Shown here piece after piece: positions 16,035 to 20,650 of a stretch of DNA of 64,000 nt. Both the position numbers and the translations under genes were made by a program. The DNA comes from an uncultured Chthonomonadaceae bacterium (GTDB lineage Bacteria > Armatimonadota > Chthonomonadetes > Chthonomonadales > Chthonomonadaceae), in assembly GCA_963835065.1 (NCBI GenBank), contig CAWIEK010000045.1, positions 32,001 through 96,000 of the forward strand. The letters run 5' to 3'. Under the pieces are notes generated by a model. It ran no database searches and was not told the origin of the DNA. It saw only the letters and a list, made by a program, of their open reading frames with translations. Position 1 is the first letter of the stretch; each line of letters begins with the position of its first letter.

Positions 16035-16586
16035 TTATAACACACAAGGGCCTTCAATCAATGGCAGCAGATGCGCGGCTATTTTGGCGATGTTGCGGGC
16101 ATCATCTATGCCACGATGGTGGGTTCCCGATAGCGGGATGTTCAGCATTGCCAACGCGCCTCTCATGCCTGTCGGCTTGACGCTCTTCTGCCGCGAGAAC
16201 TCTTTCTTCAGGTTGATGTGGTTCTCGAACGAAGGCGGCAGTTCCATTTTGTGCCGTTCGCAATCCGTTCGGAACTGGTTCAGATCGTAAGCGCCCCACG
16301 AACACAGCCGAAACGGTTCTTCGCCAATCCAGTTGACGAACTGCGGAAACACGGCCCAGAAATAACCCGCCGCGTCTATATCTTCCTGCCGAATGGAAGT
16401 CAGCCGCGTACAAAACTCGCTCAACTGCGGCGAAGCAACCGGCTTGACAAACGCCGCAAACTCACGGCTGACTGTCCCCTCGCTCAACTCCAGCATCACC
16501 GCGCCGATTTCAATGATCTCCATTCGGCTCGGAGTTTGCCCCGTTTCCCAACAGGTTGCTTCCAAATCTACAATCACGTATCGCAT
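16035..16586 (-). CDS. DEDDh 3'-5' exonuclease, ERI-1/KapD-like
   Basis: VIVDLEATCWE, EIIEIGAV, LSEFCTRLTSI, SWGAYD, HHRGIDDARNI. Confidence 0.9.
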   Translation of the reverse strand: MRYVIVDLEATCWETGQTPSRMEIIEIGAVMLELSEGTVSREFAAFVKPVASPQLSEFCTRLTSIRQEDIDAAGYFWAVFPQFVNWIGEEPFRLCSWGAYDLNQFRTDCERHKMELPPSFENHINLKKEFSRQKSVKPTGMRGALAMLNIPLSGTHHRGIDDARNIAKIAAHLLPLIEGPCVL

Positions 16587-16598
16587 GACATATCCTTG

Positions 16599-17234
16599 CT
16601 AAAACGGACGAACGGCAAAGTCGCCAAGCGTGACGGTGTAACTGTTCTGCTCGTTTCGCGCCACGTAGCTGACGATGGTTTCTCCGGCTATGGCGACGGC
16701 AAGCCCGACGAGATTGCGGGCAAGCGGGTAATCGCAAACATCATCGTTGACATCGGAGGGAACGCGGTACGCGCTGTTCCAGATGATTTCGGCGTAATCG
16801 CCCGCAAGCCCGACGTGCAGGCACGGCAGATTGGCTTTTTCGCAGGCGTCTTTAACCGCCTGCCGAGAACCGCTGTTGTCGAACGTGTCTACCACCAGAC
16901 CGCTTCCCGCCAGCAGTTTGCCCGCATTGGCCGGCGTCAGTTCTTCGGCATAAGGCTCCACTTTCACGGCAAGGGCGCGGTACAGCGTATTCGCCAGAAT
17001 TTTCGCTTTGTGCGCGCCAATGTCCGAACGGTAAAACGGCTGCGTGGATAGGTTGCGCTCCTCCACTCGATCCCGGTCAATCACGCGCAAGCGCCCAAAC
17101 CCCTGCCGCGCCAAACTCTCCACAAGATTCGCCCCCAACGCCCCACCCCCGCAAACCGTAACAGGCAGATCCTTCATCCGCCGCATCACCTCTCCGCTGC
17201 GGTAAAGTTGTTCATGATAAAGCGCGTCATTCAT
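16599..17234 (-). CDS. ThiF/MoeB/E1-like adenylyltransferase
   Basis: CGGGALG nucleotide-binding loop, IDRDRVEERNLSTQ, KA, VDTFDN; no CxxC pairs; DDVCDYP is a candidate catalytic Cys. Confidence 0.9.
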   Translation of the reverse strand: MNDALYHEQLYRSGEVMRRMKDLPVTVCGGGALGANLVESLARQGFGRLRVIDRDRVEERNLSTQPFYRSDIGAHKAKILANTLYRALAVKVEPYAEELTPANAGKLLAGSGLVVDTFDNSGSRQAVKDACEKANLPCLHVGLAGDYAEIIWNSAYRVPSDVNDDVCDYPLARNLVGLAVAIAGETIVSYVARNEQNSYTVTLGDFAVRPF

Positions 17235-17281
17235 CCTTCATCCTTGTCTTTCATCACTCATCACTTATCACTCATCATTCA

Positions 17282-18208
17282 TCAATACTCTTCGTCGTCC
17301 CAATAGCCGGGTTCGCGCTTTTCAATCACGCCTACGAGCGATTGCAGGTCGAACTTTTGGTCTTCCCCGCTCAGGCAGATGCCGGAACTGATGACCGTCA
17401 AATCTTGTTTGCTGATGGCGGAATGGTGGGCTTTGCCGTCACCCGTTGTCCATGCCACCTGCCAGAACTCGCCCTTGTCCTCATAACTGCGCAGGTTGCC
17501 GCCCGCGCCCTGCAACGCGCCGCGCAAGCGTTCCTCATCCCGCCGCACACTCAGGCGGTCGTAAAGTTCCTTAACTTGGGGCGCGTTCGGGTTGTAACGT
17601 TCGCCCACCAGCGCGTTGAAGGCCGTATCACTTTGCAGCGACAGTTCATAGGTGGCGCGCATCTCCGGCGTCAGTCCCGCAAAGCGCAGCGTTTCTGATG
17701 CCTCAACGCGCATTAGCGATTCCTGCAAGGCTTCGGCAGGCGCGGGGTCAGCGCGGCGATCCAGTGTTTCAAACCACCACGTTCGCCCATCCCCGCGAAC
17801 AATCACCTGCTCGAAACTGCGCGCGGCCTCCACCAGATGTACCAGCAAAGGACGCGCGCTGCCTACCTTTTGCTTGGCATCCGACTCGTTGACGGGGTAC
17901 GCCAGCCAGCTTCGATGCTGCAGCCGATGCACCAGCCGAACGCGCAGGGGCAGCAGTTTCCTCAGATACTCCTCAATCAGCATCAAGTCTGCCGTTTCCG
18001 CCACATCCGCGTTGCGCTCATCGCGGGGGCGAAACAACCCCCATCCTTCAAAGTCGCGCGGGCGCGGCGTAAACGTCTGCACGAGTCCGGCAATGCGCGT
18101 CCGCGCGGTTCCCCCACGGACGCAAGGCGCAAGAAACGTGGTTTCTCGCGCCTTTGCTTCTTCGGAAGCCATTTGTTTTAATAGATTCTGAATGTTGAAA
18201 CGGCTCAT
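17282..18208 (-). CDS. hypothetical protein (308 aa) with C-terminal SGICLSG motif, possibly E2-like
   Basis: In operon directly upstream of ThiF; start ATG 18208; E2 likeness rests only on the motif and context. Confidence 0.7.
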   Translation of the reverse strand: MSRFNIQNLLKQMASEEAKARETTFLAPCVRGGTARTRIAGLVQTFTPRPRDFEGWGLFRPRDERNADVAETADLMLIEEYLRKLLPLRVRLVHRLQHRSWLAYPVNESDAKQKVGSARPLLVHLVEAARSFEQVIVRGDGRTWWFETLDRRADPAPAEALQESLMRVEASETLRFAGLTPEMRATYELSLQSDTAFNALVGERYNPNAPQVKELYDRLSVRRDEERLRGALQGAGGNLRSYEDKGEFWQVAWTTGDGKAHHSAISKQDLTVISSGICLSGEDQKFDLQSLVGVIEKREPGYWDDEEY

Positions 18209-18454
18209 AATCGTCTGTTCGCGCGCAAGTTTGAAAAGCAAAGCGCTGTCATGTCAGTTGGCTCCGCCGGGCTGCTGTTACGCGCTCATTAAAGGGTGGC
18301 TGCTTCTAAGCCTACCTGCCGGGTTCATCGCGTCCCTGCCACTTCGCGCCCGTCCACAAACCGACTGTCGCCACAGCCTATATGTGAACGGTACTGTTCC
18401 TCTCGTACTTGTGTATGTAGGCTTCTGCGGTTGGGGCGCGCGAACTGACGATTA
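18208..18454 (-). ncRNA. Y-RNA-like scaffold RNA 3 carrying 23S rRNA sarcin-ricin-loop and L11/GAC mimics
   Basis: 19-bp closing IR with one mismatch (18208-18226 / 18436-18454); shared scaffold motifs; AGUACGAGAGGAAC at 18396-18409; GGCUUAGAAGCAGCCACCCUUUAAUGAGCGCGUAACAGC within 18267-18323. Confidence 0.8.
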
Positions 18455-18524
18455 CGAGTTCCGTTACATCCTCTATCGCGCGCCTACCCCGTTTGCTAAA
18501 CGCATTGCTTCCAAAGCTCAATAC

Positions 18525-19999: not shown

Positions 20000-20101
20000 C
20001 AGGTTTCAGGTTTCAGGTTTCAGGGATCAGGGCAATGCCGCTGCTTGGAAGATAGCACAAAGCAGTACGCATGTCCTGACCCCTGACCCCTGAAACCTGA
20101 C
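20000..20101. repeat. inverted pair of heptamer tandem repeats (GTTTCAG)n ... (CCTGACC/CCTGAAA)n
   Basis: Direct reading; can form a hairpin just upstream of the TROVE RBS. Confidence 0.7.
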
Positions 20102-20107
20102 AAAGTC

Positions 20108-20234
20108 CTGCCTCGCATAAGTTCGGAAAGCTGTGGGTATACATAGGATTTGAACCTATAACAGTCTGGGTATCAACCAGATTGTCCTACCAATGGACAT
20201 GTATGTAAGCTTCCACAGTCAGGATGCGAGGCAG
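20108..20234 (-). ncRNA. Y-RNA-like scaffold RNA 2 with tRNA-Ile(GAU)-like cloverleaf
   Basis: 11-bp closing IR; D arm GUCC-AUUGGUA-GGAC; anticodon arm UCUGG-UUGAUAC-CCAGA; T arm AUAGG-UUCAAAU-CCUAU; 4-bp acceptor remnant, no terminal CCA. Confidence 0.8.
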
Positions 20235-20261
20235 AAGTGTCGTATGTGATTATAAAAGGGT

Positions 20262-20415
20262 TTTGTTCCGCGCAAGTTCCAAAAGCGGGTTTTCACTGGC
20301 GCTCTGCCACTGAGCTACAGCCGCCCAATGTATGCGGCTGACAGGATTCGAACCTGTGACTTCCCCATTAAGAGTGGAATGTGTGTACGCTTCTCGCGTC
20401 AGGGCGCGGAACAAA
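20262..20415 (-). ncRNA. YrlA-like scaffold RNA 1 with circularly permuted tRNA-Lys(CUU)-like domain
   Basis: 12-bp closing IR; order is anticodon arm UUCCA-CUCUUAA-UGGGG, AAGUC, T arm ACAGG-UUCGAAU-CCUGU, loop-closed acceptor stem CAGCCGC/GCGGCUG, UA, D arm GCUC-AGUGGCA-GAGC. Confidence 0.85.
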
Positions 20416-20449
20416 CTGTCAAATTTGAACTATTCTCAACCCTCAACTC

Positions 20450-20650
20450 TCAACCGTAAACGGCTTCCGGGCGCACGATGATGTTGCCGTTGGGCGCGCG
20501 GTCTACCACATAGGACACGAACCGGGCGCGCTCCACGTCGAAATGCTGCGCCAACCGTTCCCGAATTTCGTTGTCCTTCATCTCGGCTGAAACTTTTACT
20601 TGAAGTTCGTTCAAGTCGTAAGAGCGTCCTTCAAAACGAACGTGTACCAT
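20450..20650 (-). CDS. small ubiquitin-like (beta-grasp) protein candidate, 66 aa
   Basis: [13 protein letters not shown]...[12 protein letters not shown]-terminal Gly; first gene of a ThiF-containing operon; GAGG SD. Confidence 0.7.

Follow-up and report, generated by a model that had tools for sequence, protein, structure and literature searches.

The Y RNAs known from bacteria function in RNA decay, and their tRNA-like domain is of a single kind. In the accessible text of a Y RNA survey, the motif of YrlA RNAs that binds Rsr, the bacterial Ro60 protein, is defined as GNCGAAN0-1G near the 5′ end (PMC4201824). For bacterial ubiquitin-like systems, the sections consulted of a second report describe a crossover-loop cysteine as typical of thioester-forming E1 enzymes and propose that Bil E2 proteins recognize targets without an E3 (PMC11601596). 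Here, we analyzed a locus in a 64,000-nt stretch from an uncultured Chthonomonadaceae bacterium (contig CAWIEK010000045.1, positions 32,001 to 96,000; hereafter, the window), in which a predicted Ro60-like protein and a set of small RNAs lie beside a candidate ubiquitin-like protein (Ubl), a Cys-containing protein, and a ThiF/E1-like adenylyltransferase. Judged from sequence, the system is real, conserved, and undescribed in the literature searched, and it falls outside YrlA (by motif and score) and outside Bil/Bub (by JAB peptidase) as these are defined.

A first-pass annotation of the window had described five open reading frames (ORFs) and three RNAs in one run between 16035 and 20650; their order and positions were borne out, all on the minus strand, as are all window features given below. 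Pfam named ThiF and a DEDDh exonuclease among the five ORFs and gave a weak von Willebrand factor A (vWA) match for the 484-aa protein, while PADLOC, NCBIfam, and PHROGs returned nothing for the locus proteins beyond generic ThiF and exonuclease matches.

The Ro60-like protein and the adjacent handle RNAs

The 484-aa protein (18525..19979) is predicted to be a divergent Ro60/TROVE ring closed by a vWA domain. A profile search using 110 homologs matched human Ro60 (E 2e-16), Xenopus Ro60, and Deinococcus Rsr, as well as phage Ro60 (E 7e-12, over residues 23-393), whereas a single-sequence PDB search found no match. For the structural model (pLDDT 93), the best 11 Foldseek matches were all Ro60/Rsr chains, with TM scores of 0.60-0.72. 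The metal ion-dependent adhesion site (MIDAS) is intact: D307, S309, S311, and D393 were kept in 110/110 homologs and T369 in 109/110. The fold assigned at first pass was thus upheld by the human Ro60 match and the best TM score, and Pfam TROVE (PF05731) was nonetheless silent, matching neither the 484-aa protein, nor any of 38 diverse homologs, nor its own genome; the vWA_Ro60 model matched 4 of these 38, one above its cut-off. Identity to known Ro60 proteins is about 15%. A Y RNA survey based on TROVE annotation, as described in the available portion of its text, would miss the family, perhaps because Pfam TROVE is blind to it (PMC4201824).

Homologs are widespread, with 2,782 matches among 7,999 scored candidates, and the named relatives belong to Chthonomonadaceae, cyanobacteria, and Acidobacteriota. 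Within the host phylum, the protein occurs in 15 of 251 genomes, and within the phylum to which one cyanobacterial locus belongs, in 34 of 301. One TROVE homolog (set P0256, P0243, P0249, P0279, P0283, P0290, P0299) contains an intein carrying a LAGLIDADG domain, and several others in this set reach 700-830 aa through N-terminal or internal additions without a Pfam family.

The RNAs beside this gene share a handle composed of a stem P1, an internal loop with CCYRAC opposite ACUU, a stem P2, and a UACAYAC box. Exactly four handle matches were found in the 8.0-Mb genome, all at this locus; the three modular RNAs on a common scaffold reported at first pass were real, and a fourth unit (RNA4) had been missed. 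RNA1 (20262..20415) carries a circularly permuted tRNA resembling that of YrlA, with the order anticodon arm with a CUU-type loop (20368-20374), T arm, closed acceptor stem, and D arm. It scored 32.3 bits with the Rfam YrlA model, under the gathering cut-off of 69 (fold z -3.6), and no match at gathering score to YrlA was obtained in loci L001-L010. The permuted domain is present in RNA1 and not in RNA2-4. RNA2 (20104..20238) carries a tRNA in normal order (Rfam tRNA 37.3 bits; fold z -3.35) with a GAU-type (Ile) loop at 20170-20176 and the conserved UACAUAC box as its 5′ acceptor strand; ARAGORN did not call it. RNA3 (18204..18458) joins the sarcin-ricin loop (SRL; core 18398-18409) of 23S rRNA to helices H42-H44, the GTPase-associated center (with H43/44 at 18274-18312); in the host 23S, approximately 1,700 nt separate these two sites. 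Rfam scored it as large-subunit (LSU) rRNA with 42.1 bits (fold z -2.0), and a hidden Markov model (HMM) of its class, built without RNA3, matched it at E 1e-20. The tRNA-Lys-, tRNA-Ile-, and 23S-like cargoes named at first pass were in this way confirmed. The outer stem of RNA3 (18204-18230) overlaps the start codon of the adjoining 308-aa gene, so that folding or processing of RNA3 could gate translation of that protein.

RNA4 (15884..15987), the last handle match, follows the exonuclease gene and carries a short hairpin cargo (fold z -3.2) without a match to host tRNAs at E 0.5. Directly before it stands a sigma70-like site, TTGACA-17-CATACT (15997..16025; consensus match 10/12), which is weak evidence of a promoter since the region has 4 promoter-like sites against 2.5 expected.

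The handle was then followed across homologous loci with two finders. The loose two-box finder, which selects for P1 pairing, collected 211 distinct units in 91 sequences. The strict finder identified 103 distinct units across 126 sequences, and its three passes over shuffled sequence yielded none. Covariation was examined in 204 anchored handles, 7 of the 211 having been dropped (3 spurious, 4 not anchorable). Compensatory base changes were present in both P1 and P2 across about 200 distinct units; P1 covariation is not independent because the loose finder selects for it, and P2 was unselected for pairing. At one P2 position, 198 of 201 units were paired (A-U 159, G-C 32), and the mean paired run in P2 was 6.8, compared with at most 5.6 in 200 partner shuffles. 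The handle also tracks the Ro60-like protein: in the 301 genomes mentioned above, which include kin and are not independent, 31 had both, 3 the protein only, 3 the handle only, and 264 neither, and the reversed handle pattern had 0 matches. Viral handles on the L115, L118, and L123 contigs have a different P1, with GUC/GGAC in place of GCGC.

What the handle carries varies widely. Among 210 units, cargoes were classed as permuted tRNA (56), normal-order tRNA (55), partial tRNA (32), minimal (27), the GCUGCAAGCC class (14), SRL+H42-44 (9), H69-71 (9, plus one misfiled), and other (7). Class HMMs matched host 23S genes for SRL+H42-44 (E 4.5e-12) and H69-71 (E 1.5e-4), and BLAST of the cargoes against the host rRNA operon agreed, with 1 of 2,110 shuffles reaching E 0.001. 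The 3′ end of the H69-71 class weakly matched 23S sequence from further upstream, a hint that its layout is permuted. Anticodon loops were diverse in both tRNA classes, with 24 different triplets in the 44 loops called among the 55 normal-order units and 21 in the 30 called among the 56 permuted ones. The normal-order units are all embedded in the handle, and because CCA follows the discriminator (N73) in only 4 of these 55, most of them differ from ordinary tRNA genes, although processing could still be followed by CCA addition. By eye, the UACAYAC box of several classes either base-pairs with the cargo or lies immediately before the target loop, which would place that loop beside the handle.

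Other features of the cargoes were noted. Units with the GCUGCAAGCC core start CUCCACCA-like and are often the unit just before TROVE (L004 5779-5903, L007 5175-5309, and 12 more); this class matched neither the rRNA and tmRNA of the host nor the rest of its DNA (best E 0.75). Inspection also revealed 6 units without a D arm, and the T loop of several tRNA-like cargoes (L005 4538-4943, L030 3076-3616, L031, L060 607) is interrupted by a short palindromic repeat, an insertion that would break the tRNA elbow.

Transcription was assessed at the homologous locus L103 with contigs assembled from 4 RNA libraries, which came from 4 studies and reached 29-30 of the 30 bins; these contigs carry no strand, ends, or level, and DNA may be present, so discrete RNAs are not demonstrated by them. 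At position 16813, within an SRL unit, all RNA-contig depth carries the letter of the other mimic copies and not the host-type 23S letter.

Candidate conjugation genes and accessory neighbors

The Ubl candidate (20450..20650) has 66 aa from its ATG and the C-terminus RPEAVYG. Gly66 is conserved in 45/45 aligned homologs, and since nothing follows it, no processing should be needed. In one viral homolog (L123), two residues extend past the C-terminal Gly, which implies a processing peptidase. The 211-aa ThiF/E1-like protein (16599..17234; PF00899, E 8e-27, above its cut-off) keeps GxGxxG, D53, N61, K76, D119, and C167 (in a C-D-Y motif) in 90/90 homologs, and from its sequence C167 would lie at the crossover loop. 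Its best family matches are ThiF/MoeB models, all far under their cut-offs. The first-pass pairing of an E1 with a Gly-ending protein was supported on both sides, by the intact E1 motifs and by the invariant Gly.

The 308-aa Cys-protein (17282..18208) comprises two N-terminal beta domains and a C-terminal domain with C278. In its structural model (pLDDT 77.5; under 50 for residues 275-308), the second beta domain matches OB folds of the IF1/S17 type (Z ~7), and a helix and four-strand meander follow the OB-like domains and lead to the Cys. The best structural match of residues 214-276 was a Sec3 domain (Z 7.5), and ESM Atlas gave no usable match for residues 205-308. G276, C278, and L279 are present in 94/94 homologs and in 9/9 viral copies, and we take the resulting G-I-C-L motif to recall an E2 active site. 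The protein is accordingly a candidate E2-like carrier on the strength of its conserved residues. Complex prediction with two ThiF, Ubl, and the Cys domain (205-300) scored 0.15 against a mark of 0.32, which speaks neither for nor against such a complex.

Ubl, TROVE, the Cys-protein, and ThiF are the conserved core of the system. Of the 37 loci with 3.5 kb of sequence upstream of TROVE, 33 have Ubl there in the same orientation; of the 32 with 5.5 kb downstream, 20 have the Cys-protein and ThiF on that side. In 9 viral loci found by the ThiF profile, on contigs of up to 390 kb, the Cys-protein occurred in 9/9, TROVE in 8, Ubl in 7, and handle RNAs in 3. The co-occurrence anticipated at first pass was therefore recovered for these four genes across phyla and on viral contigs, and the exonuclease dropped out of it. 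The latter, a DEDDh 3′-5′ enzyme (16035..16586; PF00929, E 5e-20), had no tblastn match in 90 other loci, and only 3 of 62 long loci have a homolog (45% identical) next to handle RNAs; the exonuclease is accessory, not core.

Among these 62 long loci, which include near-duplicates, recurrent passengers were an L7/L12 paralog (10), KptA (9), an AAA ATPase (7), RNA ligase (4), EF-Tu (3), and EF-Ts (3). The L7/L12 paralogs are divergent, with an altered hinge, and lie inside RNA arrays (L005, L006, L007, L030-L032, L047, L111, L112). Four further accessory families without a Pfam match, exemplified by L038 6161-7015, L005 5397-5834, L031 2467-3171, and L106 12228-12653, occur in 11, 11, 10, and 5 of the 62 loci, respectively.

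Around the window locus, a long hairpin of very high predicted stability, enclosing two inner stems, lies upstream of the Ubl gene (20740-20845; z -5.55). It has no handle boxes and is possibly a leader, a terminator, or a repeat. Downstream of RNA4 is a pair of M16 peptidase genes (14294-15703 and 12961-14172), the second of which looks frameshifted near 12961-13142; the pair was not seen among recurrent neighbors of homologous loci. As stated at first pass, rtcB is absent from the locus; it is present elsewhere in the genome as two pieces about 1 kb apart on contig C7 (G000:C7:25776-28023), possibly reflecting an intein, an intron, or an insertion. The host genome also has a separate array of 16 tRNA genes (G000:C49:430274-432286), unlinked to the locus.

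Proposed function and alternative readings

The sites carried as cargo are classic targets of ribotoxins and binding sites of translation factors. We tentatively favor the reading that the locus encodes an RNA-baited, ubiquitin-like tagging system that would protect translation. By analogy with Ro60 and Y RNAs, the predicted ring would probably grip the handle common to the small RNAs, whose cargoes would present copies of tRNA and rRNA sites as bait. ThiF would adenylate Ubl and form a Cys167 thioester, as E1 chemistry suggests, and Ubl would likely be passed to Cys278 of the OB-fold partner in an E2-like transfer, the OB folds docking on RNA. Proteins caught on the bait or cutting it, presumably ribotoxins or hostile RNA-modifying enzymes, would then receive Ubl. 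Spare L7/L12, EF-Tu, and EF-Ts would act as protein baits or replacement parts, and KptA and RNA ligase would mend cut RNA. Bait and tagging are favored because the cargoes amount to a catalog of ribotoxin and factor sites, and because the invariant partners are a three-step Gly/Cys/Cys set, whose last carrier has nucleic-acid-binding folds, rather than repair enzymes. The decoy part of the first-pass proposal gained from the cargo list (anticodon loops, SRL, GTPase center, H69) and from the spare L7/L12, EF-Tu, and EF-Ts genes. Carriage by viruses is as expected of a conflict module, and the wider context (tRNA arrays, KptA, RNA ligase, large viral contigs) suggests that translation is shielded from stress or toxins, more than it suggests plain anti-phage defense.

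Several results weigh against the tagging proposal. The YrlA motif for Rsr binding was found in only 3 of 204 anchored handles, so binding of the handle by the Ro60-like protein rests on analogy. Ubl had no Pfam or PDB beta-grasp match, its best PDB-profile match being ribosomal L23 (E 0.017). The whole Cys-protein model had no Foldseek match at E 0.001 and no UBC chain among its best 50 structural matches, and an E2 identity was supported neither by Pfam on 75 members, nor by the PDB profile, nor by one Prok-E2_E sequence (probability 0.2). No JAB peptidase family matched any of the five window ORFs. The Cys-protein and ThiF were out of reach of TROVE in 12 of the 32 loci, although split loci that hold them elsewhere exist (L095, L096, L102). 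Loop sequence diversity can also reflect relaxed selection, and the tRNA arrays and repair enzymes nearby fit passive decoy or repair roles equally well.

A programmable variant, in which the Ro60-like ring and a swappable mimic RNA together form the E3 of an RNA-guided Ubl ligase and a change of cargo (any anticodon loop, SRL with the GTPase center, or H69) would redirect conjugation to the toxin or enzyme that recognizes it, in bacteria and jumbo phages alike, is possible, if doubtful.

A translation-stress platform for repair or decoy is unlikely. Here, the Ro-bound RNAs would serve as sinks or sensors for ribotoxin cleavage and bring in enzymes of repair or decay, with Ubl modifying the system's own parts or damaged RNPs, and not the attacker, as a switch. 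It would suit the cyanobacterial-phylum loci L095-L114, in which handle units, often of the SRL class, lie inside long tRNA arrays; at least 17 tRNA genes were counted in 12 of these 20 loci, which had been picked for handle or TROVE matches. Such arrays are silent until translation stress and adjoin RNA-processing genes, according to the available part of PMC8421152, and known Rsr/Y RNA particles act in RNA decay in the consulted part of PMC4201824. The KptA, RNA ligase, and exonuclease accessories point the same way. The window locus, however, has no tRNA array, and repair or decoy leaves unexplained the three-part Ubl cascade as invariant partner, the sporadic occurrence of repair enzymes, and the wide turnover of cargo.

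Distinctly improbable is a throttle on translation in bacterial dormancy or phage takeover, in which the RNAs would capture endogenous factors (EF-G, EF-Tu, L10/L11/L12, synthetases, release or recycling factors) and Ubl would switch these off or mark them. SRL and H42-44 do make up the whole factor-binding center and H69-71 the main subunit bridge, the L7/L12 paralogs encoded alongside could combine with the H42-44 mimic into a mini-stalk, and viruses carry the system. Extra tRNAs, EF-Tu, EF-Ts, and repair enzymes instead suggest support of translation rather than shutdown, and the bare hairpin cargoes (27 of 210 units) are too small for factor binding.

More improbable again is a sulfur relay or RNA modification pathway, with Ubl as a ThiS/MoaD-type carrier of a thiocarboxylate made by ThiF, a Cys-protein that modifies RNA or joins Ubl to RNA ends, and handle RNAs as substrates or guides. 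The ThiF/MoeB models are indeed the best E1 family matches, OB folds bind RNA, and the E2 fold is unproven. Those scores are nonetheless far under the cut-offs, the cargo is too varied for a single modification, and no cysteine desulfurase, rhodanese, or thiouridylase was among the identified members of 24 recurrent ORF clusters. Finally, that the RNAs are decaying tRNA or rRNA fragments or repeats lying near the genes by chance can be dismissed as extremely unlikely, since the many degenerate cargoes under Rfam cut-offs are outweighed by the compensatory changes in the handle, its link with the protein in 301 genomes, the joined SRL and H42-44, and the zero shuffle matches.

Comparison with known systems

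The tagging proposal joins elements that have been described apart. In the full-text literature searched, which did not extend to reviews on RNA repair systems and Ro60, the union of a Ro60-like protein, mimic RNAs, and a Ubl/E1 set was not found. In its consulted portion, a jumbo-phage review treats ROT/TROVE proteins as RNA-repair platforms and does not note the linkage described here (PMC7824862). Long cyanobacterial tRNA arrays, the trn operon, and the TrcR regulon (PMC8421152, PMC10272220, as far as their text was available) hold or adjoin many of the homologous loci, together with HNH, RNA-repair, and translation genes; the window locus adjoins no array. The searched text of these two papers mentions none of TROVE, Ro60, Y RNA, or ThiF, and 23S and sarcin are absent from the main text of PMC8421152. 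Ribosomal protein leaders that mimic rRNA (PMC7247131, in the part seen) are alike in being non-ribosomal RNAs that copy a protein-binding site of rRNA. Such leaders are cis elements before ribosomal protein genes, whereas the handle units are array cassettes that carry tRNA sites in some cases and rRNA sites in others.

Bil (BilABCD), Bub, and CBASS Cap2, as presented in the consulted text of PMC11601596, similarly combine a small Gly-ending protein, an E1 with ATP motifs and a Cys, and a second protein with an invariant Cys, and have no obvious E3. The window system differs from them in lacking JAB, in its stand-alone 211-aa ThiF-type E1, in the fusion of OB-like domains to the candidate E2, and in its partnership with a Ro60-like protein and RNAs; within the main text of that report, neither "TROVE" nor "RNA" occurs at a word start.

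The nearest relatives are bacterial Ro60 (Rsr) with YrlA/YrlB/Yrn1 and RYPER (PMC4201824, in the sections available), and the phage Ro60 of Thermus phage phiLo (PDB 9KOP, 9L5Y), which have the same ring and vWA fold. As in those particles, the window RNAs lie beside the protein gene on the same strand and have a long terminal stem with an ACUUG-type 3′ box, and one class is a YrlA-like permuted tRNA. The window family departs from them in its low identity and silent TROVE model, in a handle nearly devoid of GNCGAAN0-1G, in the absence of rtcB from the window locus, in its multi-RNA arrays with swappable 23S-site and normal-order tRNA cargo, and in its tie to Ubl, E1, and an OB-fold Cys-protein.

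If bait and tagging are true, the choice of target in protein conjugation would lie with RNA, a connection that the literature searched did not reveal, and a retargetable tool might follow. Should tagging fail, the family still offers natural stand-alone mimics of the GTPase center and H69. It would also remain a Ro60 clade that TROVE annotation has overlooked, with members hidden in cyanobacterial stress tRNA arrays. Set against the single kind of tRNA-like domain in known Y RNAs, one handle here displays a catalog of translation sites, including miniature 23S functional centers, and is tied to a predicted ubiquitin-type cascade.

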